A stretch of 64,000 bases of DNA from Acidimicrobiales bacterium (GCA_029263195.1 JAJCXX010000059.1:15166-79165), one strand, 5' to 3'; positions 3,884-62,704 are shown, counted from the first letter of the stretch. Notes: generated by a model not told the origin, from the letters alone. A program made the numbers and translations.

Positions 3884-4801
3884 TCACCACGTGGTATCGA
3901 TTGCCTCGGCTGAGAGCACCCACGGATCGAGTGAAAGCTCGGCCGGGTCGAATCGTGTGATCAGGTCGCTGGGCCTGACCAGTTGTTCGGGCACGTCGAT
4001 TCCGAGACTGGCGGCAAGCACGGATACCACTCTTTCGGGCCCGTCGCCGAGGACCGATCGGTCGTGCAACGTTACGGAGCCGTGCCGTTTCGCCAGCCTC
4101 TTTCCGTCGTCGGCCAGGACCAACGGTACGTGGGCGTAGGACGGGACCGAGAGTTTCAGCACCGACTGCAAGTGAATGTGGCGCGGCGTGGAGTCGAGAA
4201 GATCATCGGCCCGCACGACCTCGCCCACGCCCTGGTCGGCGTCGTCGACCACGACCGCCAGGTTGTAGGCGGGCGTGCCGTCGTTGCGACGCAGCACGAA
4301 ATCGTCGACCGATGCGCTGACGCTCCCGTGAAGAAGGTCGACAACATCTGTTGCGGTCGAGAAACAGCGGAGACGAAGGGCGGCCGGGCGACCCGATTCC
4401 TCGTTTTCGGCAACCTTCTTCGCCGGCAGATCCCGACATGTTCCGGGATAGGTACCGGGCGGTTTGTGAGGAGCTACGGCCGCTTCCCGCACCTCTCTAC
4501 GAGAGCACCAACATCGGTAGGTCAGGCCGGCATTCGACAGGTCGGTTATGGCGTCTTCGTAGAGGTCCGACCGCTCGGACTGCCGAACCGGTGGGTCGTC
4601 CCAGTCGAGTCCGATGAGCGAGAGATCGCGGGCCTGACGATGTTCGTAATCGCGGGACGACGTGGAGAGGTCGAGGTCCTCGAATCTCAAGAGGAACCTC
4701 GAACCGTCCGATCGTGCGAACAGCCACGCTGCCAACGCGGTGCGAAGATTGCCGATGTGGAGGTCGCCGGTGGGGCTGGGGGCGAATCGACCGGTCGGCA
4801 T
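3884..4801 (-). CDS. gluQ: glutamyl-Q tRNA(Asp) synthetase (truncated GluRS paralogue)
   Basis: 305 aa. It has the HIGH-type motif (GDLHIGNLRTAL) and a class-I GluRS catalytic core, with no anticodon-binding domain. Confidence 0.75.
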   Translation of the reverse strand: MPTGRFAPSPTGDLHIGNLRTALAAWLFARSDGSRFLLRFEDLDLSTSSRDYEHRQARDLSLIGLDWDDPPVRQSERSDLYEDAITDLSNAGLTYRCWCSRREVREAAVAPHKPPGTYPGTCRDLPAKKVAENEESGRPAALRLRCFSTATDVVDLLHGSVSASVDDFVLRRNDGTPAYNLAVVVDDADQGVGEVVRADDLLDSTPRHIHLQSVLKLSVPSYAHVPLVLADDGKRLAKRHGSVTLHDRSVLGDGPERVVSVLAASLGIDVPEQLVRPSDLITRFDPAELSLDPWVLSAEAIDTTW

Positions 4802-4932
4802 TCACTGATGCTCGCACGTCGGCCGCTGGCGCGGGCTACGGAGGGCGCAAATGTCTGGCGAGGAGACCGATCCCGAGCGCTTTCTCTCCGACCCAGCGAG
4901 TCAACCGGGTCGGGTTCTGGAACACTGGTGCG

Positions 4933-5664
4933 ATGACAACCCGACCGGGCGAAGAACACCACCGCATCCAGATGGTTCACAGCCATCGAGATGTGCAGGG
5001 CGGATTGGCGCGCGCCACGGTGTTTGGAGTGAGCGACGGCCTGGTGTCGAACATTGCTCTCATTCTCGGTATCGCCGGAGCGTCGACCGATGGGTCACTC
5101 GTCAGGCTCGCCGGCATTAGTGGCCTGTTGGCCGGAGCCATCTCGATGGCGGCGGGGGAGTGGATATCCGTCCGGGCCCAGAACGAACTCATCGAACGCG
5201 AACTCGAAATCGAGCGACGTTCGCTGGCGGAAGATCCAGAAGCCGAGAAACGTGAACTCGCCGCGATTTACAGGGCGCGCGGAATCGACGCGGAGCATGC
5301 TCGCCAGGTCGCCGAGGCGGTCATGTCCGATCCCGAAGTTGCCCTGGAGGTTCACGCCCGCGAAGAGCTTGGCGTCAACCCCGATGGCATCGGCAACCCC
5401 ACGCTCATTGCGGTGTCGTCGTTCTTCGCCTTCGCTCTGGGAGCGATCGTGCCACTGGCGCCATGGTTCTTCGCCGAGGGTTCATCAGCAGTGATTACTT
5501 CGGTGGCTTTCGGGATCTTGGCCGCGGCGATCGTCGGCGTTCTGCTGGCCAAATTCACCGAGCGGTCACCCGTTCTGACGGCGACACGACAGGTTCTCGT
5601 GGCCGCCGGCGCAGCAACCGCGACCTATGTGATCGGGTCTGCTCTGGGCGTTTCCGGTATCTGA
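4933..5664 (+). CDS. VIT1/CCC1-family Fe/Mn transporter
   Basis: The ORF track extends upstream, but the plausible start is the ATG at 4933 (MTTRPGEEHH…). The motifs VFGVSDGLVSN and SMAAGEWISV and the C-terminal TM pair are typical of the VIT family (DUF125). Confidence 0.7.
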   Translation: MTTRPGEEHHRIQMVHSHRDVQGGLARATVFGVSDGLVSNIALILGIAGASTDGSLVRLAGISGLLAGAISMAAGEWISVRAQNELIERELEIERRSLAEDPEAEKRELAAIYRARGIDAEHARQVAEAVMSDPEVALEVHAREELGVNPDGIGNPTLIAVSSFFAFALGAIVPLAPWFFAEGSSAVITSVAFGILAAAIVGVLLAKFTERSPVLTATRQVLVAAGAATATYVIGSALGVSGI

Positions 5665-5756
5665 TCCGTCCCAGTTGCGGTTCAAGTGCTCTGAAACATG
5701 AGCCGATAGCACCATCTAGCGGAGTCCATCCGTACTGATCTATCGGACCGATTGGG

Positions 5757-7160
5757 GTGCACGTGGCAATAACCGATGTTGCGAATCGGTCCGATGTCTC
5801 CCACCTGCTCCGACGGGCCGGTTTCGGTGGAAGCCTGGCGGAGATCAACGCGCTCACCGGCCGCACCCGTGAGCAGTGCGTGGATGCGATCATGGGATTT
5901 CGGGCCACCGACAGTGTTCCGGACGGCCCCGACGTCGGGGTGCCGGCATTCGTGTCCAAGCAGAACCAATGGGATTCCCACAGCGAGGTGCTCAACTGGT
6001 GGTTCGCACGAATGGCAGCGACCCCGAATCCGACGACCGCTCCTGGTGTCGTACCGGCGGTTGCCTCGCCGACTCCTCTACAGGAGAAGATGACGCTGTT
6101 CTGGCACGATCACTTCGCCTGCGGGCAGGACAAGGTGAGTGACATCCCGGCCATGTGGGACCAGATCTCGATGTTTCGCCGCAAGGGCCTGGGAGCCTTC
6201 GGTGACCTGCTGCGGCTGGTGTCGGTGCACCCGGCGATGTTGGTCTATCTCGACAATCAGTCGAACGTCGCTGGATCCGAACAGGAGAACTACGCCCGCG
6301 AGCTGATGGAGTTGCACACCATCGGGGTCGGCGAGTTCACCGAGGACGACGTGATAGCGATGGCCCGTGCCTGGACCGGCCACAACACGATCGGCTGGAC
6401 CGGATCGGAGTGGGACTCGACCTACGTCTATTCGTCGTCCGAACACGATGACTCTTCGAAGACGCTGTTCGGCATCACAGCCAACTGGAATGGACTGGTA
6501 CGGAGTCCTGGCGAGCGCGAGGTCATGGCCGAGTTCACAACCGGATCGAAGCAAGGGGCGACCGCCCGATTCATGTCTCGAAAGCTATTCCGTTGGTTCG
6601 CTCATCTGGACCCGTCAGATGCGGTCGTCGACTCACTCGCCGGTGCTTTTGTCGCCTCCGGCATGCAGGTGTCGGCGCTCGTGCGGGCGGTCCTCAGCCA
6701 CGATGAGTTCTGGGGGCCTGAGAGCCGATGGGCGCAAGTCAAGAGTCCCGTCGATTTCATGGTGTCGATCATTCGTCGATCCGGGCTGCCAGCCGCCGAC
6801 ATGGGTCTCCATTGGCGCATGGAGAGCATGGGTCAGGTGCTGCTCGAACCGCCCAATGTTGCTGGTTGGGGAACTGGTGCCGGCTGGCTTTCGACGGCCT
6901 CGGCCTGGGGACGTGGCGCGATGATGAGAGGCCTGAGGTGGAGGGCATCGGATTCCGGGCTGCTGGCCGGCACCGGAAGTCTGGCTGCGGCCGATGCCGT
7001 CCAAGCGATCTTCGACCTGTTCGGGCTGGAGGAGGTTTCCGCCGCAACTCGTCTGGAACTCGAGCGTTGGCACCAGGAGACCCACGCCACCTCAAGTTGG
7101 TCGATACCCACCCAAGGTTTCATGCTCGGAGCCATGATTCCGGAGTTTCAGGTCCAATGA
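5757..7160 (+). CDS. DUF1800 family protein
   Basis: 467 aa with a GTG start. The N-terminal HLLRRAGFG signature and the motifs LFWHDHF and ELHTIGVG are characteristic of DUF1800. It overlaps the next gene by 4 nt (ATGA). Confidence 0.75.
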   Translation: MHVAITDVANRSDVSHLLRRAGFGGSLAEINALTGRTREQCVDAIMGFRATDSVPDGPDVGVPAFVSKQNQWDSHSEVLNWWFARMAATPNPTTAPGVVPAVASPTPLQEKMTLFWHDHFACGQDKVSDIPAMWDQISMFRRKGLGAFGDLLRLVSVHPAMLVYLDNQSNVAGSEQENYARELMELHTIGVGEFTEDDVIAMARAWTGHNTIGWTGSEWDSTYVYSSSEHDDSSKTLFGITANWNGLVRSPGEREVMAEFTTGSKQGATARFMSRKLFRWFAHLDPSDAVVDSLAGAFVASGMQVSALVRAVLSHDEFWGPESRWAQVKSPVDFMVSIIRRSGLPAADMGLHWRMESMGQVLLEPPNVAGWGTGAGWLSTASAWGRGAMMRGLRWRASDSGLLAGTGSLAAADAVQAIFDLFGLEEVSAATRLELERWHQETHATSSWSIPTQGFMLGAMIPEFQVQ

Positions 7161-8929
7161 ACGCAACGACCATCATCGAAGATCATGAGGCGGGGATCGC
7201 CCGCCGTCGGTTTCTGCAGGGGGCACTGGCTCTGGGTGGCGCAGCCGGCGTGTCGCCCGGATGGCTCGATCGGATCGCGTTGGCCGGGCCGCCTCTCGGG
7301 CCTTCGGATCGGATCATCGTGTCGGTGTTCCTCTTCGGTGGAAATGACGGTCTCAACACTCTTGTTCCGGCTGAGGACGGACGATATCGCAGCGCCCGCG
7401 GCTCGCTGGCGGTGGACGTCACAGGAGCGACGTCTGTCGGCGAAGGTCTTCACCTGCATCCCGCGCTGACGCGGCTCAAGTCCCGATTCGATGCCGGCCA
7501 GGTCGCGCTGGTCAGGGGAGTGGGAGAGCCGTCGAACGACCACAGTCACTTCAGCTCGAGGGCGACCTGGATGAGTGCTCAGCCTGGCATGGTCAATCCG
7601 ACGGGTTGGCTCGGACGCTATGCCGACAGTGCCGGCATGGGTGATCTCTCTGCGGTTTCGATCGGATGGGGCGAGGTGCCGCTGGTACTCAAGGGCAACA
7701 CGACCCCGACCACATCGTTGCCTCCCAACGGCGGGTTGTTCGGAGCCGACCGATCCGAATCATACGAGCGCCATGCCATGGAGGCCCTGAGTCGAATCGG
7801 GGGCGCCGGTGCCGGCATGGGTCCATTCGGTCCTGCGGTTTCCGGCTCGATCGGATCCGCGGTCGACACGGCGCAACAGATCAGTCCGGCATACGTCCCC
7901 ACCCTTCCCACCGAAGGCCTCGGACTTGATCTGGCTCTGGCGGCTCAGGTGATCAATCTCGACGTCGGTGCGAGGGTGCTCAGCGTTTCTCTGAGCGGAT
8001 TCGACAACCACAGCTCCATGCGTCCCGATCACGACGATCTGATGACTGAACTCGATGCCGGGATAGACGCGTTCTTCGCCAATCTCGCGCCGCAGTTCGT
8101 CGGGCGTACCTCTCTCCTCGTGTCCTCGGAGTTCGGAAGGCGGGTCCGACCCAATGATTCCGGAGGCACCGATCACGGAGCGGCTGGCCTGGCCATGTTG
8201 ATTGGAACTCGCGTCAATGGCGGACTGCATGGGGTTCAGCCCTCTCTGGGTGATCTCGACCGCCGAGGCGATCTCAAGCATCACGTCGACTTCCGGTCGG
8301 TCTACGCGACCGTTCTTGATGATTGGCTCGGTGCTGATCACGGGTCACTCCTGGGCGGCAACCATCCCAAGCTCGGATTGTTCTCTGCTCCGGGGCCCGG
8401 CGGTTTCTTCGACGTCAGCTCCGACAAGTACTACGGGCCGGCGGTCGGCTGGTTGGCAGGGCGTGGAATCACCACCGGCACCGGGATCGGAGAGTTCTCT
8501 CCCGATGGCCCCGTCACCCGAGCCCAGATGGCGACGTTTCTCTGGCGCTACCGAGGCCAACCGTCGGGTGCTCCGGCTGCCGCATTCTCCGATGTTCCTC
8601 GCGGGACCTACTACTCAGCCGCTGTTGATTGGCTTTCTCAGACGGGAATCACCACGGGAACGGGATTCGGACGATTCTCTCCCGACGATCCAGTCACGCG
8701 CGGTCAGATGGCGGCGTTCCTGTGGCGCTTGGAGAACAGGCCCGGGGGATCTCCACGCGCTGGCTTCTCCGATGTACCGTCCGGCAAGTACTACACCCAG
8801 GCAGTCGACTGGCTACTTCACCGAGGCATCACAACTGGTCTAGGTGCCGGTCGATATGGGCCGGACGAAGTGGTCACGCGGGGGCAAATGGCGACGTTCC
8901 TCTGGCGATTGGCGGGTAGTCCGGTGTAG
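7157..8929 (+). CDS. DUF1501 (sulfatase/alkaline-phosphatase-fold) protein with twin-arginine signal and three C-terminal SLH repeats
   Basis: The true start is the ATG at 7157 (MNATTIIEDHEAGIARRRFLQGALALGGAAG); the ORF track extends it upstream. RRRFLQG is a Tat motif. The central domain matches DUF1501 (VFLFGGNDGLNTLVP…TDHG). The C-terminus carries three 60-aa repeats, FSDVPxxxYYxxAVDWLxxxGITTGxGxGRFSPDxPVTRGQMAxFLWRL, that match the SLH consensus. Confidence 0.8.
   Translation: MNATTIIEDHEAGIARRRFLQGALALGGAAGVSPGWLDRIALAGPPLGPSDRIIVSVFLFGGNDGLNTLVPAEDGRYRSARGSLAVDVTGATSVGEGLHLHPALTRLKSRFDAGQVALVRGVGEPSNDHSHFSSRATWMSAQPGMVNPTGWLGRYADSAGMGDLSAVSIGWGEVPLVLKGNTTPTTSLPPNGGLFGADRSESYERHAMEALSRIGGAGAGMGPFGPAVSGSIGSAVDTAQQISPAYVPTLPTEGLGLDLALAAQVINLDVGARVLSVSLSGFDNHSSMRPDHDDLMTELDAGIDAFFANLAPQFVGRTSLLVSSEFGRRVRPNDSGGTDHGAAGLAMLIGTRVNGGLHGVQPSLGDLDRRGDLKHHVDFRSVYATVLDDWLGADHGSLLGGNHPKLGLFSAPGPGGFFDVSSDKYYGPAVGWLAGRGITTGTGIGEFSPDGPVTRAQMATFLWRYRGQPSGAPAAAFSDVPRGTYYSAAVDWLSQTGITTGTGFGRFSPDDPVTRGQMAAFLWRLENRPGGSPRAGFSDVPSGKYYTQAVDWLLHRGITTGLGAGRYGPDEVVTRGQMATFLWRLAGSPV
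8405..8926 (+). repeat. three in-frame tandem 180-bp units encoding the SLH modules of the DUF1501 gene
   Basis: The units begin at 8405, 8585 and 8765, by arithmetic from the protein repeats F417, F477 and F537. Confidence 0.7.
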
Positions 8930-9006
8930 TGGGTGGCTGGGTCTGATCCGGTGCGGCGCTAGCGTCGATTCCGGAGCCAGGGGACCGAGCATGCCGAAGT
9001 CAGCCG

Positions 9007-9840
9007 ATGTCTGAATTATCCCTTGACCTTGAGCGCGTCGGCGCGGCGTCGGTCGCGATCCCGAAGGTCTTTGTCGATACCCCTCAGTACATCAGCGATG
9101 GTCTCAGCCGCATGCTGGGGCTCGATGTGATTCTCAAGGTGGAGACCGTGAATCCGGTCGGATCGGCGGCCGGCCGGGCGGCCGAGTGGTGGTTCGAATG
9201 CAATCCGGACGAACGGCGAATCGTCTGTCCGTCGGTGTCGGATCTCGGTGTTGCCATGGCCAGGGCCGGCCGGGTGCGCGGAGTCGAGGTCGACCTGTTC
9301 GGTCCGTTGGTCGCCGATCGGGGCATGGTTGATCTGCTTCGTCGTGGTGGCACCACGGTGCAACTGGATGGAAACGATCTCTTGGAGGCCTCGGTCGAGG
9401 CCCGGCGCTACGCCGCAGTGGTGGACGCCCGATTGGTCGAGGACGAAACCCATATCGAGTTCGTGGAGGGAGCGGCGACAATGGCGGCCGAACTCCAGGC
9501 GGATGTCGACTCGATGACCGAGATCTATGTACCTGCCGACTCGGGTTTCCTGGCGGTGGGCGTCGGGCAATGGTGTCACCAGATGATGCCGAGCACTCGA
9601 GTTGTGGCGGTTGTGGTCGGAAACGGACCGGGTCCGGTCGGGATGGCCACGACGTCCATCGATCAGACCGTTCATGTCGACAATGAGTCGATCGACCGGG
9701 CGCGGGAGGCGCTGGCGCGGCACGAGGGCCTTCGGGCGTCGGAAATCGGCGCGGCCCCATTGGCAGCGGCCATGCTGAGCGCTCCGCAGGGCGGAGGATC
9801 GACGGTGGTGGTCGCAGTGACCAGTCGCGATCTGGGCTGA
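9007..9840 (+). CDS. PALP-fold (Trp-synthase-beta/threonine-dehydratase-like) protein lacking the PLP-binding lysine
   Basis: 277 aa. ILKVETVNPVGSAAGRAA aligns with the K-x-E-x-x-N-P-T-G-S-F-K-D-R-G motif, but the Schiff-base Lys is replaced (SAAGRA). AELQADVDSMTEIYVPADSGFLAVGVGQ aligns with the E-x-x-x-Q-…-D-x-V-F-V-P-V-G-G-G-G-L-x-A-G region, with the Gly loop degenerated. Confidence 0.6.
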   Translation: MSELSLDLERVGAASVAIPKVFVDTPQYISDGLSRMLGLDVILKVETVNPVGSAAGRAAEWWFECNPDERRIVCPSVSDLGVAMARAGRVRGVEVDLFGPLVADRGMVDLLRRGGTTVQLDGNDLLEASVEARRYAAVVDARLVEDETHIEFVEGAATMAAELQADVDSMTEIYVPADSGFLAVGVGQWCHQMMPSTRVVAVVVGNGPGPVGMATTSIDQTVHVDNESIDRAREALARHEGLRASEIGAAPLAAAMLSAPQGGGSTVVVAVTSRDLG

Positions 9841-12312
9841 TCAACCGCGTTTCTTGGTTCGTGCGGTGGGAGCGGCGCTGGTCGGATCTTCGGGCCATGA
9901 GTGCTTCGGGTAGCGGCCACGCAGTTCTCGCCGGACCTCGGCGTAGCCGGTCTCCCAGAACGAGGCGAGATCGTCGGTCACCTGCACCGGACGGTGGGCA
10001 GGGGAGAGCAGATGCAGTACGACTCGCACCGCTCCGCCGGCCACGGTCGGCGATTCGGTCATCCCGAACATCTCCTGAAGCCTGACCGGCAGGACGGGGG
10101 CCGGGCCCATGTAGTCGACCGGGATTCGAGAACCGGATGGCACGTCGATGTGACTCGGGGCGAGACGATCGAGGTCGCGTCGTTGGCGCCAGTCGATCAG
10201 TGATCCGAGAGCGCCCTTGACATCCAGGGCCTCGAGATCGGATCGTCGCTTGGCGTTGCCGAGTTGAGGTGTGACCCAGTCGTCGAGTCGCTCCATCAGC
10301 GATTCGTCAGAAACGTCGGGCCATTCATCGGGGAAATTGGAGTGGGCAAACGCGAGCCTCGACCGATAGCGCTGATCGGCCTGGTTCCATCCGAGAATCG
10401 CCAGCCCCTCGCGACGCACCCCAGCCAGCAGGGCTTCGGTCACTTCTTGAAGTGGTGGATCGGGCACCCGGCCACTGACCAGGATGAGCGAGCCGAGCGT
10501 CTGTTGATCCTCGAACACGACGTCTCGGGCCCTGCGATCCCAGCCCCCGCGCACTGCGTGTTCGATCCGCTCACCGTGGAGGCTACGAATCTCTTCGAGA
10601 CTGACCGGTGCGGCGGTTCGAATAATCGCATCGGGTCCGGCGCCTTGCAGTTCGGCTACCGCCAGGAAGGGTTCGCGCGCCAACCCGTCGTCGGCTGGCA
10701 TGGTCGCTCCGGCACCAGACGTGAGAAGGAAGCCGCCGGGCTCCTTGCGCCTCATGGCGATTCGGTTAGGAAAGGCCTGAGAGATGAGTGGGCCGACCAG
10801 GTCGAGATCGAAGGGCTCATCGACGACGTCGAAGGCCCGGCGCCACCGTCGCGACGAGTCGCGGGCCCGGGACCTGGCGGATCGATCCACGCCGGGGCCT
10901 CCAGCGTGCAGCGCCTCCACTCTGGCCCGAAGATCGGTGGGCCGGTCGCGGCCGACCAAGAGATCACGGTCGGACAACACAGCCGCGACATCACACGCGG
11001 TGGCGGACTGACCGAGATTCGATCCGACGAGCATCAGATGGGCGAGTCTGGGCTCGGTACCGAGCCGCATCATGCTTCGACCGTGTTCTGTTATTCGTCG
11101 GTCCTCATCGATGGCCCCGAGAGCCGTCAGGGTTTCTCGGGCCGAATCGAGCGCAGCGGTGGGAGGAGGATCGAGCCATCGCAGTTCGGTGTGATCCACT
11201 ACTCCCCATGCCGCGATTTGCAGGGCCATGTCGGTGAGGTCGGATGTGAGGATCTCTGGAGGGTCGTGGCGGGGTCGGCGGGACTGATCGCTCTCGGACC
11301 AGAGGCGAACACACGCGCCGGCTTCCTGGCGGCCGGCCCGCCCTCGCCTCTGATCTGTTGATGCTTGGCTGGTACTGACGGTGCGCAGGCGACTCATCCC
11401 GCGACCATGGTCCATTTCGGGTCGGCGTCGTCGGCCGGTGTCGACCACGACTCTCACTCCGTCGATCGTGACGCTCGTCTCGGCCAACGGTGTGGAGAGG
11501 ATCACCTTGCGATGACCTGCCGGGTCTGGCTGAAGTGCGAGGTCCTGCTGGACCGGCGGAAGCATCCCGTGCAACGGCGTGATCACGATCTCGTCGCCAA
11601 GGCGACGCTTGAGCTCTCGTTGAGCTCGTGAAATGTCGCGGGCGCCGGCCAAGAAGACGAGAACGTCGCCGGGATGGCGATCCAGGGCAGCAACCACAGC
11701 GTCGGGAACCTCCGCTTCGGCGTCTCGGCCTGGAGCAGGAGGGCGGTAGATCGTGCTGACGGGATGGGTTTGTCCCTCGGCGCGGATCACGGAGTCGGTA
11801 CCGAGGCCGGTACTGAGGGCTTCGGAGTCGAGGGTCGCCGACATCACGATGAGCCGCAGGTCCGGACGTAGTGCATCAAGAGTTTCGAGAGCGAACACGA
11901 GTGCGGTGTCGGCGTGGATGCTGCGTTCGTGGAACTCGTCGAACACCACGGCACCCACCCCTGACAGGGACGGGTCATCGAGAAGCATCCGGGTGAGTAC
12001 GCCTTCGGTCACGACCTCCACGCGAGTGTGGCGTCCGACCCTCGTGTCGAATCTGGTTCGCAGCCCGATGGTCCGGCCGATCTTCTCGCCGCGTTCGTCG
12101 GCCATTCGTTGAGCGGCAGCCCGCGCCGCGACCCGACGGGGTTCGAGAATGATCACTTTCTTACCGTCGAATTGGCGAATGCCGATTAGGAACGGAGGCA
12201 CCCGCGTGGTCTTGCCCGTGCCCGGTGGGGCTTCGATGATCACGACGGCATTGTCGATGAGGGCCGCCTCGAGCTCGGGCAGTACTTCGTCGACCGGGAG
12301 GTGAGCGGCCAT
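9841..12312 (-). CDS. hrpB: ATP-dependent RNA helicase HrpB (DEAH-box)
   Basis: 823 aa. Motifs: Walker A GTGKTT, DEFHER, an HA2-like region and the C-terminal HrpB domain. Confidence 0.85.
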   Translation of the reverse strand: MAAHLPVDEVLPELEAALIDNAVVIIEAPPGTGKTTRVPPFLIGIRQFDGKKVIILEPRRVAARAAAQRMADERGEKIGRTIGLRTRFDTRVGRHTRVEVVTEGVLTRMLLDDPSLSGVGAVVFDEFHERSIHADTALVFALETLDALRPDLRLIVMSATLDSEALSTGLGTDSVIRAEGQTHPVSTIYRPPAPGRDAEAEVPDAVVAALDRHPGDVLVFLAGARDISRAQRELKRRLGDEIVITPLHGMLPPVQQDLALQPDPAGHRKVILSTPLAETSVTIDGVRVVVDTGRRRRPEMDHGRGMSRLRTVSTSQASTDQRRGRAGRQEAGACVRLWSESDQSRRPRHDPPEILTSDLTDMALQIAAWGVVDHTELRWLDPPPTAALDSARETLTALGAIDEDRRITEHGRSMMRLGTEPRLAHLMLVGSNLGQSATACDVAAVLSDRDLLVGRDRPTDLRARVEALHAGGPGVDRSARSRARDSSRRWRRAFDVVDEPFDLDLVGPLISQAFPNRIAMRRKEPGGFLLTSGAGATMPADDGLAREPFLAVAELQGAGPDAIIRTAAPVSLEEIRSLHGERIEHAVRGGWDRRARDVVFEDQQTLGSLILVSGRVPDPPLQEVTEALLAGVRREGLAILGWNQADQRYRSRLAFAHSNFPDEWPDVSDESLMERLDDWVTPQLGNAKRRSDLEALDVKGALGSLIDWRQRRDLDRLAPSHIDVPSGSRIPVDYMGPAPVLPVRLQEMFGMTESPTVAGGAVRVVLHLLSPAHRPVQVTDDLASFWETGYAEVRRELRGRYPKHSWPEDPTSAAPTARTKKRG

Positions 12313-12327
12313 TCTTTCAGGGCCGAT

Positions 12328-13005
12328 TCATTGGAGCTGGTTGGTGATCGAACGGACGGCGTCGGCGACGGTCTCGGGGTTGGATTTCATCACGTAGTGG
12401 CGGGCCCCTTCGACCGTGGTTCGCGTCACGTTGGGGAGTTTTCTCTCCATGTAGTCGTTGGCGCCGAGGAACGCCCGGTCGTCGCTCCCCACGACCAGCG
12501 CGACCGGTATGTCGATCTCCTGAAGACGGTCGATGACCATGGAGTCGATGTGCAGGGCGATGCCCGCTGCAGTCGAGGTGACGCCGTATTTGGGGGCGCT
12601 GGCCTCGACCCGTTCGTTCCAGCTCTCGCGGGCGGCCTGGTCTCGGAACCCCGGGCCGGTCGATACCAACACGAGCCCGCTGAGAACACTGGGTCGGGTC
12701 AGGACATGGGCCATGCCCAGGTAGCCACCCAATGAGTGACCGACGAGTGTCGTCGGTCGGGTCGAGTCGGTGATCAACTCGTCGATGTCGTCGAGCACCG
12801 CCTCGCGGCCGTATGCCGCCGGATCGTCGGGGGACGGTGATTGTCCGTGACCCGGGAGATCGATGCTGACGCACCGGTGATCACCGGCGAGCAGGTCGAC
12901 AGTCGGACCCCAGACCGACGAATCGGAATCGAGGCCGTGAAGGAACAGCACGTCCGGGCCGTCGCCCCTCCGATCGATGTGAAGGAATGGTGTTCGGTCG
13001 CTCAC
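12328..13005 (-). CDS. alpha/beta-fold hydrolase
   Basis: The likely start is the GTG at 13005, preceded by GGAGG with a 6-nt spacer; the longer ORF to 13098 would overlap the upstream enoyl-CoA hydratase. It has a GHSLGG nucleophile elbow. Confidence 0.7.
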   Translation of the reverse strand: MSDRTPFLHIDRRGDGPDVLFLHGLDSDSSVWGPTVDLLAGDHRCVSIDLPGHGQSPSPDDPAAYGREAVLDDIDELITDSTRPTTLVGHSLGGYLGMAHVLTRPSVLSGLVLVSTGPGFRDQAARESWNERVEASAPKYGVTSTAAGIALHIDSMVIDRLQEIDIPVALVVGSDDRAFLGANDYMERKLPNVTRTTVEGARHYVMKSNPETVADAVRSITNQLQ

Positions 13006-13019
13006 AACTGACCTCCGGT

Positions 13020-13814
13020 TCAGCGGCCCTCGAAGATCGGCCGGCGTTTGTCCATGAACGCCTGCACCCCTTCGCGGAAATCGGCGCTCGAGTAGCAACG
13101 GGATGCGGCAGCGGCGGCCGCGGCGTCGAGGTTGTCGTGCAACAGTGAATCGACGGTGAGCTTGCCGGCACGGATCGAAAGTGGCGACAAACCGCCGATC
13201 TGATCGGCGAGAGTCGCGGTCTGGGCATCCAGGTCGTCCTTCTCGGTCAAGACATCAACGAGACCCATCCGATGGGCCTCGGTTGAGTCGACCACCCGTG
13301 CCGTGAACAGCAACAGTTTGGCGGCGCTGGGTCCGACCAGGTGGACAAGTCTTGCGGTCGCCGATCGGGGATAAGCGAGGCCCAGGCGAGCCGGCGGAAC
13401 CGAGAACAGGGCGTCGTCGGAAGCGAACCTGATGTCGGCGAGCAAGGCGATCGCCAGACCTCCGCCCATGCACGGCCCGTGGATCGAGGCTACGACCGGC
13501 ACCGGGATCGATTCGATCGCGTTCCATGCGAGCTGCTCGGATGAGTCGTAGTGCCCGGCCTTGTCGCCGGTTCGACGCTCCGGGAACTCACTGATGTCGG
13601 ATCCGGCCCCGAATGCCTCGGTGCCCGATCCCTTCAGGATCACACAGCGAATGTCGGGGTCGGACATGATCTGCTCAACCGCCCCGGGGACCTCGCGGTA
13701 CATCGCACTGTTCATGGCGTTGCGGCGCCCGGGATTGTCGATGATGAGCGTGGCGGTGGGCCCGCTCAGTTCGATTCGTATTTGTGCCACGCGGTCAGGA
13801 TTGCAGATCGACAC
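13020..13814 (-). CDS. enoyl-CoA hydratase/isomerase (crotonase) family protein
   Basis: 264 aa with the crotonase motifs NPGRRNAM and KGSGTEAFGAGSDI. Confidence 0.8.
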   Translation of the reverse strand: MSICNPDRVAQIRIELSGPTATLIIDNPGRRNAMNSAMYREVPGAVEQIMSDPDIRCVILKGSGTEAFGAGSDISEFPERRTGDKAGHYDSSEQLAWNAIESIPVPVVASIHGPCMGGGLAIALLADIRFASDDALFSVPPARLGLAYPRSATARLVHLVGPSAAKLLLFTARVVDSTEAHRMGLVDVLTEKDDLDAQTATLADQIGGLSPLSIRAGKLTVDSLLHDNLDAAAAAAASRCYSSADFREGVQAFMDKRRPIFEGR

Positions 13815-13838
13815 GCGTGTCGGGTGGCAAATCCACGG

Positions 13839-16800
13839 TCAGTGGGCGTGACCGACCATTCGCTCACCTTGGAGCTCACCTTGGAGTCCGGCCTCGATCT
13901 GCTCGGCCGGAGCCGGTCGGGTGAAGTAGTACCCCTGTCCGAATCGGCATCCGAGTGCCCGGAGTCGGGTGTGTTGCACCGGCAACTCGATGCCTTCGGC
14001 GATGGTGGTGGCACCCATCTCGTGCGCCAGTCGCAGAACCGTCGTGACGACGCTTGACCGTTCGTTGTCCTCGAGTTTCATGACGAACGACCGGTCGATC
14101 TTGAGGATGTCGGCCGCGAAGACCTCGGCGTATCGCAGTGTTGCGTTTCCAGTGCCGAAGTCGTCGATCGCCACCCGCAGCCCGGCATCGCGGAGCTGAT
14201 CGATTCTCTCCTTGATCAGCTCGAAGTCGTCGATCAATGCCGATTCGGTGAGCTCCAGCACGACGGCGCTGTGATCGATACCTGATTCGTCGACTGTGTT
14301 GAGGATCTCCGACACGATCCCGTCGCGCTTGAGCTGAACCGGCGAGACGTTGACGCTCACGTATATGTCGTGGCCGGCTTTGCGCCACTTGGCCGCCTGG
14401 TTGACGGCGGTGTCGAGGACCGATTGGCCGATGGGGATGATCATTCCGTTCTTCTCCGCCAGCGGAATGAAGGAGTCTGGACTGACCATTCCTCGCTTCG
14501 GATGGAACCATCTCACCAGAGCTTCGACGCCCACTGTCTTGCCCGAGGCGAGATCGACGATCGGCTGGTAGTACAGCATCAACTCGTCGTTCTCGATGGC
14601 CGCTCCGAGGGCGTTGGCGATCTCGAATCGTTCGACGGTCTCGTCGGACATACCGGCTTCGTACACAGCCCAACGGCCCTTGCCCTGGCCCTTGGCCTCG
14701 TACATGGCAACATCGGCATGACGCAGAAGGTCCTCCGGCGTCTGACAGTCGTCGTCGCTGACGGCGATTCCGACGCTCACGCCGATGATTATCTCGCGAC
14801 CCATCAGACGCACAGGGCGCGACAGCTCCTCGACCACGCGATCGGCAATGGTCGTGATGTCGGTTTCGCTGTAGACATCGGTGAGTAGCACGGCGAATTC
14901 GTCTCCGCCGAATCTTGCTGCCTTGTCCTGGAGGCGCAGGCGGCCGAGCAGACGGCTGGATATCTCCACCAGAACCTGATCGCCGGCGGCGTGTCCGAGA
15001 GAGTCGTTGACGTTCTTGAAATCGTCGATGTCGATGAAGAGAACTGCGACCTTGCCCGGTCCGGACTCATGCTCACGAAGGGATGCAGTGAGTGTGTCGG
15101 TGAACTGCACGCGACTTCCGAGGCCGGTCAGATCGTCGTGGAGGATCTGGTGACGCAGGTCGTCCTCGAGCTTCTTGCGGTCGCTGATGTCGCGAATGTT
15201 GAGCACGAGGCCCCGTACTGCGTCGTCGTCACGCCGATCGGTGAGGGTGACTTCGACGGTCCTCCACTGGCCCGACGAGTGTGCGAGTGAGACCTCCACG
15301 GTCCGACTACCGACGCTTCCGTTGGCGAGGTCGTCGCGCAGTTGCTGGATTCTACGAACCTGATCGGGGGGCAAGAGCTCGAGAACGTTTCGGCCTTGGA
15401 CTTCATCGGGTCGGAGGCCGAGAAGGTCGTAGACAGTGGGGCTGGCGTAGGTGAACGATCCCTGCTCATCGACGACGCTGATGACGTCGGAGCTGTGCTG
15501 AACCAGGCCTCGGAACCATTCCTCGCTGCGTTGCAGGCCGATCTTGGCCGCTCGTTCCTCGGTGATGTCGCGTGCTGTCATGACCACACCGCCGACTTCA
15601 TTGTCGTCGGAGAAGTCGCAGGCGGAGATCTCGAACCAGCGGTAGTCGTCTCCGGCCGTTCGAAACCGGGCGTCCATGGTGATCGGTGGCTCAGAAGGAC
15701 TGGTCGGCCGGTGCAGGTGTTCGGTGATGCGGCCGGCGTCTTCGGTGTGCGCGAGCCCGATGAGACCCGTGTCGATGATCTCGGTGCTGCTGAGGCCGAG
15801 AATCCTCGTGGCATTGGGTGAGACGAAGAGAACGCGGTCGAGTGAGTCGGTCACCATCACGACGTCGGTCGACTGCTCGACAAGGGCGTGGAGTCGTCGT
15901 TCCGACCGGCGCTTGAATGCATCTTCGCGCATGGTGATGTTGTGCAAGGCCAAGGTGGCGTGGGCGGCCATGGTCTGTAGAGCCAACTGCTGGCTGTGTT
16001 CCAGCGGTCCTCGGGGTACGACGATAATCGCGCCGTCGGACGAACCGAGGCGCACGTTGATCGACTCGGACTGCTGATCGAGTCTGATCATCTCGGAGAT
16101 CGTGGCCACGTCGTCGCCAGGGGGCCACATCGCATCCTGAAGATCGACTATGCCGCCGGAGGTCCGACTGACGACCACCGCATCCCCCTGGGAGCGAACG
16201 ACCGCGACGTGAGCGGAGTTGTCACCGAAGATGAGGCGGATCGCGCTGCCAAGTGCGCTCACCACGGAGGGAGCATCCTCGGCGGTCACGAGGTCTTGGG
16301 TGGTCTGGTTCAGTTCGTTGTCAAGTCGGGCCAGCTTGTCGCGTGCTCTCAACAGACCGACAACTCTGACCAATACGAGAGTCGACAACACGGCGGTGAA
16401 CACGAATGTGATTACGAAGCTTCCGCCAACCATGATCTGCATCAGTGCCAGCACCGGAAGCATCAGAACGCTCAGAGCCAAGCTGACAAGCCGGCTGCGT
16501 GTGAGGTCAGGACTGCTTGCCGGGGGCCGTTCGAAGAGTCCGGAGTGATCAGGTTCGTGTGCGAGCAGGGCGAACGATCCGAATCCCACGGCCGCGATCG
16601 GGATCAGGATACGGCCCCCCGGTTCACCGATCGTGTCGAGTATCGCCACCACGTCGGTGGCCAAGATGGTGAGCATCGCGGTGGCTGTGAGCCAGTAACT
16701 GCGGCTTCTCCGGGCCGGCCCGGTGGCAAGTCTGAGGGTCGTGGCAGCGATCGCCACCTCGGTGGCCGCATAGACGAGGGTGAGGGCGCGGTGCTCGACG

Positions 16801-17357
16801 GTGTACGTGCTGTCTTGGAGGTAGCCCTGCAGTACCCCGACCCAGAATGGCCCGAGCAGTGCGATGGCCACCATGACGACGTCGAGAGCATCGCCTTGCC
16901 CCACGAACGATCGGCGGGATCTCGCCATTGACAACAGCGACCAGATGACGAGGGCGTAGCCGCTGATGGCCAAGCCGTCGGCCGGACTCGGGAACGGGAA
17001 CTCCACTCCGGAAACCCCGGCGTGGACGGCCCTTGCCAGGCTGGCACCGAACAGGGCGCACGCACCTATGAACAGTTGGATCAATGCGGGGGTCTTGTCG
17101 GGTCGCCGCTTGAGAAAGACTCCGCCGGCGATCAGACACACGAACGAAAACACGACGAAAAGGAGTTCAGCCAGAAGTGTCGGCGCCAGGAAAAGCAGAG
17201 CGCCCACTGCGGCAAGCCACCAGCCAGATTTGAACCTTTGCATCGTCACGAACGAACAGTCGGCAATTCGCACGATTTGTTGAGGGGTAGGGGAAGGCTC
17301 GGTTGATCGACCACCGAGAGTGAGATTGGCGGTGCGTCGCGTGCAAGAGTTATCCAC
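13839..17357 (-). CDS. membrane-anchored PAS-PAS-GGDEF-EAL sensor (diguanylate cyclase/phosphodiesterase)
   Basis: 1172 aa by the ORF track (GTG start). An alternative start at M39 (17243) precedes the first TM helix directly. It has about 8 N-terminal TM helices, PAS repeats, an intact GGDEF motif and an intact EAL domain (EALVRW). Confidence 0.85.
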   Translation of the reverse strand: MDNSCTRRTANLTLGGRSTEPSPTPQQIVRIADCSFVTMQRFKSGWWLAAVGALLFLAPTLLAELLFVVFSFVCLIAGGVFLKRRPDKTPALIQLFIGACALFGASLARAVHAGVSGVEFPFPSPADGLAISGYALVIWSLLSMARSRRSFVGQGDALDVVMVAIALLGPFWVGVLQGYLQDSTYTVEHRALTLVYAATEVAIAATTLRLATGPARRSRSYWLTATAMLTILATDVVAILDTIGEPGGRILIPIAAVGFGSFALLAHEPDHSGLFERPPASSPDLTRSRLVSLALSVLMLPVLALMQIMVGGSFVITFVFTAVLSTLVLVRVVGLLRARDKLARLDNELNQTTQDLVTAEDAPSVVSALGSAIRLIFGDNSAHVAVVRSQGDAVVVSRTSGGIVDLQDAMWPPGDDVATISEMIRLDQQSESINVRLGSSDGAIIVVPRGPLEHSQQLALQTMAAHATLALHNITMREDAFKRRSERRLHALVEQSTDVVMVTDSLDRVLFVSPNATRILGLSSTEIIDTGLIGLAHTEDAGRITEHLHRPTSPSEPPITMDARFRTAGDDYRWFEISACDFSDDNEVGGVVMTARDITEERAAKIGLQRSEEWFRGLVQHSSDVISVVDEQGSFTYASPTVYDLLGLRPDEVQGRNVLELLPPDQVRRIQQLRDDLANGSVGSRTVEVSLAHSSGQWRTVEVTLTDRRDDDAVRGLVLNIRDISDRKKLEDDLRHQILHDDLTGLGSRVQFTDTLTASLREHESGPGKVAVLFIDIDDFKNVNDSLGHAAGDQVLVEISSRLLGRLRLQDKAARFGGDEFAVLLTDVYSETDITTIADRVVEELSRPVRLMGREIIIGVSVGIAVSDDDCQTPEDLLRHADVAMYEAKGQGKGRWAVYEAGMSDETVERFEIANALGAAIENDELMLYYQPIVDLASGKTVGVEALVRWFHPKRGMVSPDSFIPLAEKNGMIIPIGQSVLDTAVNQAAKWRKAGHDIYVSVNVSPVQLKRDGIVSEILNTVDESGIDHSAVVLELTESALIDDFELIKERIDQLRDAGLRVAIDDFGTGNATLRYAEVFAADILKIDRSFVMKLEDNERSSVVTTVLRLAHEMGATTIAEGIELPVQHTRLRALGCRFGQGYYFTRPAPAEQIEAGLQGELQGERMVGHAH

Positions 17358-17366
17358 TTTTCCACA

Positions 17367-17394
17367 GGGCCCATTGGCCTAGGCCAATAGGCCC
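17367..17394. promoter_or_regulatory. 16-bp perfect palindrome ATTGGCCTAGGCCAAT (28 bp with one mismatch pair: GGGCCCATTGGCCTAGGCCAATAGGCCC) in the divergent intergenic region
   Basis: Read directly from the sequence at 17373-17388. It lies between the start of the PAS-GGDEF-EAL gene (17357 or 17243, minus strand) and the SAM-decarboxylase-like gene (17433, plus strand). Confidence 0.4.
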
Positions 17395-17432: not shown

Positions 17433-17774
17433 GTGAGGGACCTCGCGCCTCAGATCCACAGACAACGTCTGGTGATCGAGGGATACCCCGAAAGGCCACT
17501 CGAAGCGCACGACATCACCGACTATTTGTCGAAGATGTCCGAGGTGCTCCAAATGACCACTCTTCAGGAGCCGCTCACCAATCTCAGCTCTCGCTATGGC
17601 TGGGCCGGGTGGATCCACTGGGAGAACTCGGGCGCCCACTTCTACGCCTGGGAGAAGCCAGTCCTGTTCTTCAGCGTCGACATCTACACGTGCAAGCGGT
17701 TCGATCCGCATGCCGCAGTCGCCTTCACCCGAGAGTTTCTGGGAGCCGAGACGATCGAGTTCAAGGAATTCTGA
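17433..17774 (+). CDS. S-adenosylmethionine decarboxylase-like protein (AdoMet_dc / SpeH class 1a fold, pyruvoyl-enzyme family)
   Basis: The likely start is the GTG at 17433, preceded by AGGACAGGAG with a 5-nt spacer. It aligns with Thermotoga SpeH: LVIEGYPE matches LVAEFYEC; HWENSGAHFYAWE matches ISESHLTIHTWPE, with the pyruvoyl-precursor Ser conserved but in Asn-Ser rather than Glu-Ser; VDIYTCKRFDP matches IDLFTCGEDVDP, with the Cys conserved. Confidence 0.55.
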   Translation: MRDLAPQIHRQRLVIEGYPERPLEAHDITDYLSKMSEVLQMTTLQEPLTNLSSRYGWAGWIHWENSGAHFYAWEKPVLFFSVDIYTCKRFDPHAAVAFTREFLGAETIEFKEF

Positions 17775-17775
17775 G

Positions 17776-18633
17776 TTGGTCGACATCGACCTGACGGTTG
17801 GAGCCGAGCAACGCCGGTATCTCGTCAATGAGCTGAGATCGAGGGTTAACCGGCCCGATTCGACAAAACATTTCGGATTATATTTTGTCGCCTCGCACAG
17901 TGACTTCGCGCCGCTGGCCCGATTCGTCGAGAGATCGGTGTTCCTGAGGCAGTTCGGTAACGACGACGAGGAAATGGACCGCGAATACGGGCCCTTCGAG
18001 GCCTCCTCGTTCTTCATCCTGGCGGTTGACCATCACCAATCCGAGCCAATCGGAGCGATCCGGATCATCGAGCAATCGGTCGCCGGGTTGAAGACTCTCG
18101 CCGACATCGAGATGGAGGCGGCCTGGGGAACATCCCCCGATCAGTTCGTCTCCCAACATTGCGGAACCGACGACCCCGATCGTGTGATCGATGTGGCTAC
18201 TCTGGCCGTCAGGTCAGAGTGGAGCGCCACGGCCACGGGAATGCTCACCGCAGCAGCCCTGTACGGCGGCATATACCGAGTCACCTACGCGGTCCGATCG
18301 CGACAGGTGGTGTCGGCCCTCGACGAATCGGTCGCTGATCTGCTTCGGTCGGTCCACATACCTCTGGATCCGATCTGTGATCTCCCGGCGATCGAGTACC
18401 TGGGTTCGCCCGCCACGAGGCCCTACGTGATCCAGGTCGGCGAGGCCGAGTCGGTAATGCGCACCAATGAGACACTTCTGGGCGTGCTGATGGGCGGAAT
18501 TGTCGACAAGCAGTATTCACTTCCGCCGATCGACCTCGACAATCCCAATCCGCATCCCATCGAGATGGAACCGCAGTTCCTGGACTCCGAGCCGGCCGTG
18601 CAGCCGGCCGCCGCAAAGTCCCTGGTCGACTAG
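17776..18633 (+). CDS. hypothetical protein; LuxI/OlsB/FeeM-like N-acyltransferase fold suspected (Acetyltransf_5-like)
   Basis: The start is probably the TTG at 17776, 1 nt after the upstream stop, with an AAGGAA site 7 nt upstream. The core RSVFLRQFGNDDEEMDREYGPFEASSFFILAVDHHQSEPIGAIRIIEQS fits the autoinducer-synthase / N-acyl-amino-acid-synthase pattern R-x-V-F-…-E-x-D-x-Y-D-…-Y/F-L/I-…-I-G-x-x-R-L/I-L/I. This is a weak, recognition-only call. Confidence 0.45.
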   Translation: MVDIDLTVGAEQRRYLVNELRSRVNRPDSTKHFGLYFVASHSDFAPLARFVERSVFLRQFGNDDEEMDREYGPFEASSFFILAVDHHQSEPIGAIRIIEQSVAGLKTLADIEMEAAWGTSPDQFVSQHCGTDDPDRVIDVATLAVRSEWSATATGMLTAAALYGGIYRVTYAVRSRQVVSALDESVADLLRSVHIPLDPICDLPAIEYLGSPATRPYVIQVGEAESVMRTNETLLGVLMGGIVDKQYSLPPIDLDNPNPHPIEMEPQFLDSEPAVQPAAAKSLVD

Positions 18634-25254: not shown

Positions 25255-25704
25255 TCAGTCGATCGTGAGTTCGACGATGAACTTGGTGATATCGGCAGGT
25301 TCGTGGCCGTCGCTGAACCCGATCGTGACGGACTGATCGACGGAGACGGCGACCATCCCGGCGTTCCCCAGCCAGGCATGAATGAAGTCATCGGGGTCGT
25401 CGCTGTTGCGCCAGGCGTTCCACACTCGTAGTTGTCCCCCGTCCGGACACACGATGTCGACCTCCTCAGGACTGTTGTCCGACCAGATGATGAACCGTCT
25501 GGCGCTGATGTCGCCGACTCGCATCTCAGCGTCGGAGTCGATGACGATTGCCTGGGGTCGTGGTGCGGTGGAGCGTTTGCGAACGACCTTCACGGTGGAG
25601 TTCGCCGCGACCTCGGTACGCCAGATGGACCTGATCTCGGTCGTGCCGTCGAGGATCGACTCCGACTGCTGTTCGGCGAACCCCTCGGCCCAGGAATCGG
25701 TCAT
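25255..25704 (-). CDS. hypothetical protein
   Basis: 149 aa and acidic. Its start overlaps the upstream membrane-protein stop by 4 nt, consistent with an operon. I recognise no domain. Confidence 0.4.
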   Translation of the reverse strand: MTDSWAEGFAEQQSESILDGTTEIRSIWRTEVAANSTVKVVRKRSTAPRPQAIVIDSDAEMRVGDISARRFIIWSDNSPEEVDIVCPDGGQLRVWNAWRNSDDPDDFIHAWLGNAGMVAVSVDQSVTIGFSDGHEPADITKFIVELTID

Positions 25705-26405
25705 GTCGGAACAGTCCGGAACGGATCGATTGCGACATCGGACCAGTAGGGGCGGCCGACTTCAACGTCGACCTTTGCGGTCTCGACCTTGCCGCTCAGA
25801 GGGTTGAATCGCCGCGGGGGCTTTCCGGCCGCCATTCTCGTGGCATTTGCGGCGCCCCAGCCGACTCTCTTGGAGTGGTTCTTCCAAACACGCGATCGCA
25901 CGGTGGCAGCCGGTGGTCGCGCCCTGTTTCGGGTGGCAACAAGAACGTCGTCGCCTCGTTTCCATCGCGTTGGCGGCGGCTTTTCGACCGGGACCGCCAC
26001 CTCTGCTGCGGGTTCGAACGGTGGCGCTGATTCGGGATCTTCAAATTCGGCTTCGAGCAGCACTGGCTCGAACTCGAGGTCGGGAAGACGGCGAGCGGCG
26101 TGATATGGATCGGTGATCAGTTCCGAATCGGCTTCGATGGAACGCAACTCACGCTGCTGGTTCCAGGTGAGGCGAAGGCTCGATTGGCCGTACTTGTCGC
26201 GAAGAGTGGCTCGGATCGCGGCATCGCCTTCGGCTCTTTGCCGGAGTCGTTCGGCTTGCCTACTTCGGTGGCTCCCCAGCCGGCGCCGGCCGGTCGGCCT
26301 GAACGAACCCCGGCTGGGATTGCCCAGCCAGTCGAGAATGATCCACACCGCGCCCGCTCCGGCCCACACCGCCACGAAGAGGAATATTACGCTCCTGCCC
26401 CACAT
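25701..26405 (-). CDS. hypothetical single-pass membrane protein
   Basis: The plausible start is M81 of the track ORF (26405), directly preceding the TM helix VIFLFVAVWAGAGAVWIIL. It lies 8 nt downstream of the nucleoside hydrolase stop. The rest is charged or low-complexity. Confidence 0.45.
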   Translation of the reverse strand: MWGRSVIFLFVAVWAGAGAVWIILDWLGNPSRGSFRPTGRRRLGSHRSRQAERLRQRAEGDAAIRATLRDKYGQSSLRLTWNQQRELRSIEADSELITDPYHAARRLPDLEFEPVLLEAEFEDPESAPPFEPAAEVAVPVEKPPPTRWKRGDDVLVATRNRARPPAATVRSRVWKNHSKRVGWGAANATRMAAGKPPRRFNPLSGKVETAKVDVEVGRPYWSDVAIDPFRTVPT

Positions 26406-35545: not shown

Positions 35546-35731
35546 GGGATTTCCCGCGTGGAAAAGGTAGCCACCACGAACCGTGGGGCGGTGGATGCCG
35601 ACGACGCGCCGCGCGATTTGCGACCACGCTGAGCGGTTTCAGGAAGTAGGCCCGGTGGGCTGGGACGATCGAGGTCCCGACACTATTGTCGCTGCGTCGA
35701 CACGATTCGGAACGCAACAGGAGATGACTCG

Positions 35732-54274: not shown

Positions 54275-54316
54275 TGTCAGCCCGGGCCACTCCCGACAGA
54301 GCCCTCGGAGATCAAC

Positions 54317-58912: not shown

Positions 58913-59066
58913 CGGGTCGGGCCGGGACCAGACAACGCATGCGGGAGGCGAATTGAGCGATCAATGGGCGGCTCCCGGTTCTCGGGCTGAGCAGCCGTCG
59001 GTCGCGGCGCCTCGATCATTCTTCCGTTCGGCGCCATCGTCTCCTGGCGTGGGCGACCCCGATGTC

Positions 59067-61707: not shown

Positions 61708-62692
<985 letters not shown>

Positions 62693-62704
62693 CGGGGCTC
62701 GATC

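Follow-up and report, generated by a model that had tools for sequence, protein, structure and literature searches.

What does a DUF1800/DUF1501 gene pair do when its second product ends in a set of S-layer homology (SLH) repeats? This question is raised by a 64,000-nucleotide stretch of DNA from an Acidimicrobiales bacterium (GCA_029263195.1, JAJCXX010000059.1:15166-79165; here called the window, from whose first letter all positions are counted), in which a DUF1800 gene (5757-7160, + strand) runs directly into a gene for a DUF1501 protein with three C-terminal SLH repeats (7157-8929, + strand). DUF1800 and DUF1501 are among the more widespread uncharacterised bacterial gene pairs. We lean towards the reading that this DUF1501 protein is a phosphoesterase-type enzyme that would be exported through the Tat (twin-arginine translocation) pathway, be tethered to the wall by its SLH repeats and work together with DUF1800, the two genes forming the Acidimicrobiales version of a conserved two-gene module. 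No new kind of system emerges from the locus.

The DUF1800 open reading frame (ORF) starts with GTG and encodes 467 amino acids that match the PF08811 profile over its full length (positions 1-419 of 419, E 3e-91, 307 bits against a cut-off of 26.1). The second ORF sits within a longer stop-to-stop frame, starts with the ATG at 7157 and encodes 590 amino acids plus a stop codon, with one match to PF07394 and three to PF00395. All three families that the initial annotation had proposed to scan for were thus matched, and the E-values of these matches exclude chance as the origin of the domains and features. The ATG of DUF1501 overlaps the TGA stop of DUF1800 (7158-7160) in an ATGA tetranucleotide (7157-7160, + strand) that can be read directly from the sequence, as had been described. 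A GGAG at 7142-7145 (+ strand), 11 nt upstream of the DUF1501 start and within the DUF1800 coding sequence, is a weak candidate Shine-Dalgarno element. An Rfam scan of the window gave no match and no riboswitch upstream of the pair or of the VIT1-family gene that precedes it, and promoter and terminator scans of 4600-9200 gave nothing above chance. A crude gene caller based on GC content at third codon positions placed an antisense coding call at 7760-8344; this call was overridden by the Pfam evidence.

The pairing extends well beyond this strain, as the initial annotation had supposed. Among the loci that we fetched, 39 ORFs have a DUF1501 core; 37 of these are directly preceded by a same-strand DUF1800 ORF, and the other two loci are cut by contig ends, so that the order DUF1800-DUF1501 holds in 37 of 37 testable loci. 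These loci include Acidimicrobiales, Armatimonadota, Verrucomicrobia, Bacteroidota, Myxococcales, Gammaproteobacteria and metagenome-assembled genomes (MAGs) of Planctomycetaceae. The 4-nt (A/G)TGA overlap recurs in the close clade (L005-L008) and in a paralogue clade (L015 and L016); in the remaining orthologues the two genes are separated by gaps of about 10-30 nt, several of which carry a GGAGG- or AGGAGA-like stretch just past the DUF1800 stop. DUF1800 and DUF1501 are a tightly coupled pair, and DUF1800 would be an obligate partner that translational coupling holds at a fixed ratio to DUF1501. Earlier papers already report the two families as partners in one operon, note the Tat motif and assign no function (PMC5122149; PMC3542564).

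The SLH fusion has a narrower distribution. Among the loci fetched, SLH repeats on DUF1501 were observed in the Acidimicrobiales group only. Of the 78 best-matching database clusters, which are 44-100% identical to the window protein, 77 have the DUF1501 plus SLH architecture, and the fusion does recur, as had been asked; the named sources are MAGs of Acidimicrobiales, Actinomycetota or Ca. Aldehydirespiratoraceae, and the usual annotation is merely 'S-layer homology domain-containing protein'. NCBI holds a 100% identical DUF1501-SLH protein (P0001) on a 107-kb contig. The best species representative, 'Acidimicrobiales bacterium OFTM81' (L005), has an 87% identical protein in the same gene order, and it also carries a second, paralogous DUF1800/DUF1501-SLH pair (L015) whose protein is 47% identical to that of the window. 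Since both SLH-bearing pairs of OFTM81 have the 4-nt overlap, the fusion is older than a duplication within the lineage. In more distant relatives (core identity 45-54%) the SLH repeats are replaced by RTX calcium-binding repeats, by DUF4214 or by an unannotated extension of about 350 amino acids. Within one Acidimicrobiales clade an unchanged type of core is thus combined with alternative C-terminal tails, be it SLH, RTX repeats or DUF4214, and the SLH trimer would have been gained by DUF1501 in this lineage. The fusion is a lineage-specific variant, in domain architecture, of a known uncharacterised module, and it is already present, undescribed, in public databases.

How would the DUF1501 protein reach the wall? 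Its first 43 residues (7157-7285, + strand) form a predicted Tat signal peptide with the motif RRRFLQG at residues 16-22 (7202-7222). The leader runs A-R-R-R-F-L-Q-G, then a moderately hydrophobic h-region, ALALGGAAGV (Kyte-Doolittle maximum 1.58), then ALA|G, a predicted cleavage site, at residues 41-43. An alignment of 50 homologues shows conservation of at least 90% at each of R16, R17, F19, L20, Q21 and G22, an RRxFL-type motif was observed in nearly all junctions examined, and the one Pfam model with a match on the leader is a Tat one (PF10518), at a score below its cut-off. In the AlphaFold model low confidence is confined to residues 1-42, whose predicted local distance difference test score (pLDDT) is below 50. 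The initial annotation had called this a twin-arginine leader, and the conservation bears out a Tat-type motif; export of DUF1501-SLH via Tat is likely, judging from these leader features. The enzyme would fold, and probably take up metals, in the cytoplasm and would be exported afterwards.

At the other end of the protein, PF00395 matched three times (E 4.5e-35). Repeat 1 (residues 417-476, 8405-8584, + strand), repeat 2 (residues 477-536, 8585-8764, + strand) and repeat 3 (residues 537-590, 8765-8926, + strand, reaching the protein end) were each also recovered by a hidden Markov model (HMM) search and by structural match, and each contains the Trp and GITTG, followed by TRAQ in the first repeat and TRGQ in the second and third. 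The repeats start at 8405, 8585 and 8765, a spacing of exactly 180 nt. The initial annotation had seen here three 180-bp tandem DNA units, which is right for the number and the spacing of the repeats and wrong for their nature. The repeats share only 59-65% of their DNA and 60-67% of their protein sequence, and Tandem Repeats Finder, run on 5000-10000, did not report them; these results indicate ancient, diverged domain repeats rather than a recent DNA array. In a sequence search of the Protein Data Bank (PDB) the module aligned with the whole SLH domain of B. anthracis Sap (E 2e-13), and its modelled structure shows the three-pronged SLH spindle by match to 3PYW and 6BT4. The ligand-binding residues SLH-Trp13, SLH-Gly29 (of GIIxG) and SLH-Arg43 (of TRAE), with roles as given in PMC6081394, are matched in all three repeats by GW/DW, GITTG and TRAQ/TRGQ/TRGQ, and TRAQ is a working variant according to Blackler et al. 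(PMC6081394). The sole NCBIfam match of the two proteins, to a NEAT/LRR 'exception' model, lay far below its cut-off and was discarded as a spurious, SLH-driven match.

The initial annotation also held that the SLH tail provides a localisation clue for the DUF1800/DUF1501 system. The SLH-tagged form does provide independent confirmation that DUF1501 acts outside the cytoplasm, at the wall, although it adds little to the Tat motif that was already in the literature.

What chemistry would be displayed there? PF07394 matched with E 9e-21 and 74.9 bits (cut-off 27), its best stretch being limited to profile positions 241-369. A complete core, extending over residues ~44-410 (7286-8386, + strand), is nevertheless shown by the alignment of homologues and by the AlphaFold model, and the DUF1501 family motifs GGxD, SHF, DxH and GTDHG are all present. 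The model is a good one, with a pLDDT of 84.5 and values mostly above 90 outside one insertion. By Foldseek the core, with its alkaline-phosphatase alpha/beta architecture, belongs to the alkaline phosphatase superfamily, identities being about 10%; the nearest folds were NPP and PafA phosphoesterases, which ranked above all sulfatases. Invariant residues are G61-G62-N63-D64 after the first strand, S130-H131-F132 at a helix N-terminus, D283/H285, E325-F-G-R328 and D339-H340-G341. In the alignment and the model, D64, S130, D283/H285 and D339/H340 stand in an order and a secondary-structure context that would suit a two-metal phosphoesterase site. The pattern Asp, Ser, Asp-x-His, Asp-His is what we take to be the look of such a site with a Ser nucleophile in this superfamily. 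We conclude that the core is a probable NPP/PafA-type two-metal phosphoesterase, in which Ser130 would be the likely nucleophile and Asp64, Asp283/His285 and Asp339/His340 the likely metal ligands, and hydrolysis or transfer of a phosphoryl group (less likely a sulfuryl group) at the cell surface would be expected. The initial annotation had proposed a sulfatase-fold, phosphatase-like core. Here 'sulfatase' is imprecise: the nearest folds are NPP and PafA, and the formylglycine motif C/S-x-P/A-x-R is absent from the core, where the corresponding segment is S130-H-F-S-S-R, with an invariant Phe at +2 and an unconserved Arg at +5. In place of 'sulfatase-like', the sharper chemical hypothesis is thus an NPP/PafA-like phosphoesterase that has two metals and uses a Ser nucleophile.

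The partner is harder to place. The DUF1800 model (pLDDT 91.9, predicted template modelling score 0.91) is mainly helical with a small beta unit. The conserved motif HLLRRAGFGG begins at residue 16, and an invariant polar cluster comprises H16, R19, R20, H117, H119, N167, N170, E177, N178, R181, E182, E185, H230 and K235. No structural relative of DUF1800 was found among solved structures. The window protein has no signal peptide; only 18 nt of open frame precede its start codon, and most of the homologues listed have lengths of 433-475 amino acids. In most of the phyla examined DUF1800 likewise lacks a leader. Only in one gammaproteobacterial MAG locus (L039) does DUF1800 (8676-10004, + strand) open with a classical signal peptide of the Sec type, MKILFALTCLLLLWINPLHA|LND. 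This single leader suggests that DUF1800 may work outside the cytoplasm. With a Sec leader in this locus and none elsewhere, the family appears to reach the extracytoplasmic space by lineage-specific routes.

For the window protein, the L039 leader, the strict linkage and the translational coupling together lead us to prefer the reading that DUF1800 would leave the cell in a folded complex, on the Tat signal of DUF1501. Such hitchhiking is known from E. coli hydrogenase-2 (HybO/HybC) and from DmsA/DmsB, in which the twin-arginine signal is on one subunit only, and the product of the neighbouring gene, with no signal of its own, crosses the membrane as part of the folded complex; these families are unrelated to DUF1800 and DUF1501, and the likeness is one of analogy only. 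A fuller form of the idea, in which DUF1800 is the signal-less subunit of a folded, Tat-exported heterodimer, the pair is a two-subunit extracytoplasmic phosphoesterase or phospho-transferase, and its Acidimicrobiales forms are held at the cell surface by interchangeable SLH, RTX or DUF4214 tails, we regard as rather unlikely as a whole. If true, it would add an unrecognised wall-bound enzyme for organic phosphorus use in marine Acidimicrobiia.

In the main rival reading, DUF1800 could stay in the cytoplasm as a maturation or proof-reading factor for DUF1501, acting in metal or cofactor loading or shielding the signal in the manner of TorD/DmsD, and not be co-exported. Cofactor-bearing Tat substrates often have such partners, and a mostly alpha-helical protein without a signal peptide in Acidimicrobiales and most other loci, strictly linked and translationally coupled to its Tat substrate, would suit such a role. 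The Sec signal peptide of the gammaproteobacterial DUF1800 argues against this, as does the size of the protein, which at 467 amino acids and with its conserved polar cluster is much larger than known Tat chaperones. The presence of DUF1800 proteins in a vesicle proteome (PMC12981691) is a weak point in the same direction. We consider a purely cytoplasmic role somewhat unlikely, and co-export with DUF1501 can at least be raised as a testable idea.

Several results weigh against the reading of DUF1501-SLH and DUF1800 as a Tat-exported, wall-tethered phosphoesterase module. On the first 60 residues of the DUF1501 protein the only Pfam match was PF10518 TAT_signal, below its cut-off (17.5 bits and E 0.004 against 22.7 bits); relatives scored 18-22 bits with this model. 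No Tat model of NCBIfam, TIGR01409 included, matched the window protein. When the DUF1501 alignment was compared, profile against profile, with PhoA and AslA of E. coli, no alignment resulted. We observed neither PF04230 (csaB) nor any obvious secondary cell wall polymer (SCWP) gene among the roughly 50 ORFs scanned with Pfam in the 64-kb window. The papers examined on DUF1800 or DUF1501 gave no experimentally tested function for either family. Finally, DUF1800 may be an enzyme in its own right, given its own polar cluster, and its co-export, although preferred, draws on a single Sec-signal example together with gene linkage.

The same core could also serve a different purpose. The module might modify a cell-envelope polymer rather than scavenge nutrients, with DUF1501 acting like LtaS, EptA/MCR-1, BcsG or OpgB to put a phospho-substituent on a wall polymer or exopolysaccharide, or to remove it, and with the SLH tail placing the enzyme beside the polymer. 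Related SLH proteins in the lineage include wall-remodelling enzymes (Amidase_2, SpoIID), and in Proteobacteria chitin-synthase genes and a sugar epimerase were transferred together with the DUF1800/DUF1501 pair (PMC5122149). No polysaccharide-synthesis genes are present at the window locus, however, and the known transferases are anchored in the membrane by N-terminal transmembrane domains, whereas the window protein has only a leader predicted to be cleaved. We judge a role in polymer modification unlikely.

According to the initial annotation, SLH modules bind pyruvylated SCWPs. A search for pyruvyl transferases seeded with E. coli WcaK gave one weak match (E 0.045), with which the search was repeated; the results were confirmed by Pfam and NCBIfam. 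Three PF04230 genes were recovered within about 10 kb of SLH genes, in Acidimicrobiaceae SI072_bin141 (L041), in a MAG labelled 'Actinomyces sp.' J010 (L076) and in Microthrixaceae AC1.96 (L037). These genes and a fourth, in L088, matched PF04230 at E 1e-14 to 1e-22. For the first three the only NCBIfam match was TIGR03609 S_layer_CsaB, over almost the full profile and with 121-148 bits (equivalog cut-off 213). Homologous to these CsaB-like genes are 41 clusters; JGI gives some of them the name CsaB, and NCBI places some in Acidimicrobiaceae. The fourth gene, whose product is 67% identical to that of L076, lies in a block (L088; GCA_054014755.1, JBPMGG010000010.1, 1-17083) with Amidase_2-SLH and Peptidase_S8-SLH proteins, a family 2 glycosyltransferase, a Wzm/Wzt ABC exporter and two family 4 glycosyltransferases. 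This block is an SCWP-type locus. Together, the CsaB-like genes and the SCWP-type locus beside SLH genes in related MAGs indicate that the lineage has pyruvylation machinery.

Binding of the triplet directly to peptidoglycan or another glycan, or tethering of the enzyme to an S-layer-like lattice, in place of a pyruvylated polymer, would be in line with the missing csaB of the window, with the scores of the CsaB-like proteins below the equivalog cut-off and with disputed cases of direct SLH-peptidoglycan binding in the literature. Against it, the Arg, Gly and Trp that contact pyruvylated N-acetylmannosamine in SpaA and Sap are kept in all three repeats, the pyruvyl transferases of the lineage match no NCBIfam model other than TIGR03609 and cover nearly all of it, and their genes adjoin SLH genes, glycosyltransferases and the Wzm/Wzt exporter. 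We consider this mode of attachment very unlikely, and a pyruvylated SCWP remains the presumed ligand. A wall-displayed type I (formylglycine) sulfatase is an extremely improbable identity for the core, since PF07394 does belong to the same superfamily but the core lacks the formylglycine motif (R135 being unconserved), its two invariant Asp/His pairs fit a two-metal site and not the single Ca site of sulfatases, no maturase gene (anaerobic sulfatase-maturating enzyme, anSME, or formylglycine-generating enzyme, FGE) was detected in the window, and every sulfatase fold ranks below NPP and PafA.

SLH anchoring itself is not an oddity of this gene. The initial annotation had considered it unusual for a high-GC actinobacterial-type genome and had suggested a search for further SLH proteins. 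Within the window there is one more (49360-50229, - strand), of 289 amino acids, with a Sec-type signal peptide, three SLH repeats and a Cys-containing tail of about 80 amino acids; it was found at E 1e-44 with an HMM built from the three repeats of the DUF1501 protein, and PF00395 matched it three times at E 4e-30. SLH anchoring is thus used more than once in this genome. In the Acidimicrobiales and Microthrixaceae MAGs recovered by the scan, SLH genes are numerous and frequently form runs of two to four, and those scanned encode GH43, subtilase S8, Amidase_2, SpoIID, RCC1-repeat and lysyl-oxidase-like proteins. Reviews likewise count Actinobacteria among the phyla with many SLH matches (PMC6801904; PMC6081394). 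The supposed rarity is contradicted on each of these counts, and SLH triplets are a routine anchor in Acidimicrobiales. The second SLH protein of the window has no recognisable catalytic domain, and a protein identical to it occurs in the Logan assemblies of SRR15505515 and SRR15505514. In one orthologous locus (L001) a 731-amino-acid 5'-nucleotidase with N-terminal SLH repeats (11931-14126, + strand) is encoded right after DUF1501-SLH, which puts two wall-anchored phosphoesterase-type enzymes side by side.

The pair is embedded in a conserved block that consists of a GluQRS-like gene (- strand), a VIT1-family gene (+ strand), DUF1800, DUF1501-SLH, a variable slot and a gene for a pyridoxal phosphate enzyme, followed by - strand genes for an HrpB helicase, an alpha/beta hydrolase, an enoyl-CoA hydratase and a PAS-GGDEF-EAL protein. 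The VIT1-family (Fe/Mn transporter) gene (4930-5664, + strand; PF01988, E 1.4e-63) lies directly upstream of DUF1800 in the window. It precedes DUF1800 in 10 of the 13 orthologous loci of Acidimicrobiales and was absent from the paralogue loci and outside Acidimicrobiia. A functional link, for example through supply of metal to the Tat enzyme, can be imagined but is unsupported and was not adopted, as the neighbourhood is kept only among orthologues within the lineage; we treat VIT1 as synteny and not as part of the DUF1800/DUF1501 system.

Elsewhere in the window, the large PAS-GGDEF-EAL (cyclic-di-GMP turnover) protein of the conserved block was assigned to 13839-17378 (- strand) by synteny with annotated orthologous loci, and a second large protein of this type at 33329-35638 (- strand) was confirmed by Pfam. 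An 894-amino-acid fusion (54567-57251, - strand) joins a trehalose-phosphatase, a trehalase-like N-terminal domain and a GH15 glucoamylase-type domain. A MoxR-type AAA ATPase and then a DUF58/VWA protein are encoded at 61622-64000 (+ strand), and upstream of the MoxR gene lie a gene for a DUF4129 protein (59831-60559) and ORFs without a Pfam match (58863-59876, 60454-61212 and 61282-61668). Four further regions show a coding-like bias in third-position GC content and no Pfam match at E <= 1e-5: 17557-18633 (+ strand), 25255-25761 (- strand), 46341-47180 (+ strand) and 54038-54589 (- strand). The first of these gave no Pfam match at E <= 1e-3 either.

For biochemistry, the SLH-tagged DUF1501 is a convenient soluble and modular protein, and known enzymes of comparable kind show where it would stand. 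PhoD and PhoX are extracytoplasmic metal-dependent phosphoesterases that are folded and loaded with metal before Tat export and are important in marine phosphorus scavenging; to our knowledge their folds are unrelated to the DUF1501 core, and they have neither an SLH tail nor a DUF1800-like partner. Compared with the two-metal phosphoesterases NPP, PafA and PhoK, the DUF1501 core is only 11-15% identical, with no relationship detectable at the sequence level: a PDB sequence search with both window proteins matched the SLH part only and nothing for the DUF1501 core or DUF1800, and PF00884 did not match the DUF1501 protein. The core also contains large insertions, such as residues ~190-250, and in the proposed reading it would require a DUF1800 partner, whereas NPP and PafA have none.

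The closest systems are the pair at proteobacterial chitin-synthase loci (PMC5122149) and, in Planctomycetes and Verrucomicrobia, the modules with DUF1501 (PMC3542564), which resemble the window pair in families, gene order and strand and share the twin-arginine leader of DUF1501. The window pair differs from them in its C-terminal SLH trimer and its Gram-positive-type Acidimicrobiales host, and, unlike them, it has no PSCyt/PSD1 or chitin-synthase neighbours. The SLH surface proteins of Firmicutes (Sap and EA1 of B. anthracis, SpaA and SlhA of P. alvei) depend on an SCWP pyruvylated by CsaB; in contrast to these, the triplet of the window protein is C-terminal and is carried by a predicted Tat-exported enzyme rather than by an S-layer lattice protein.

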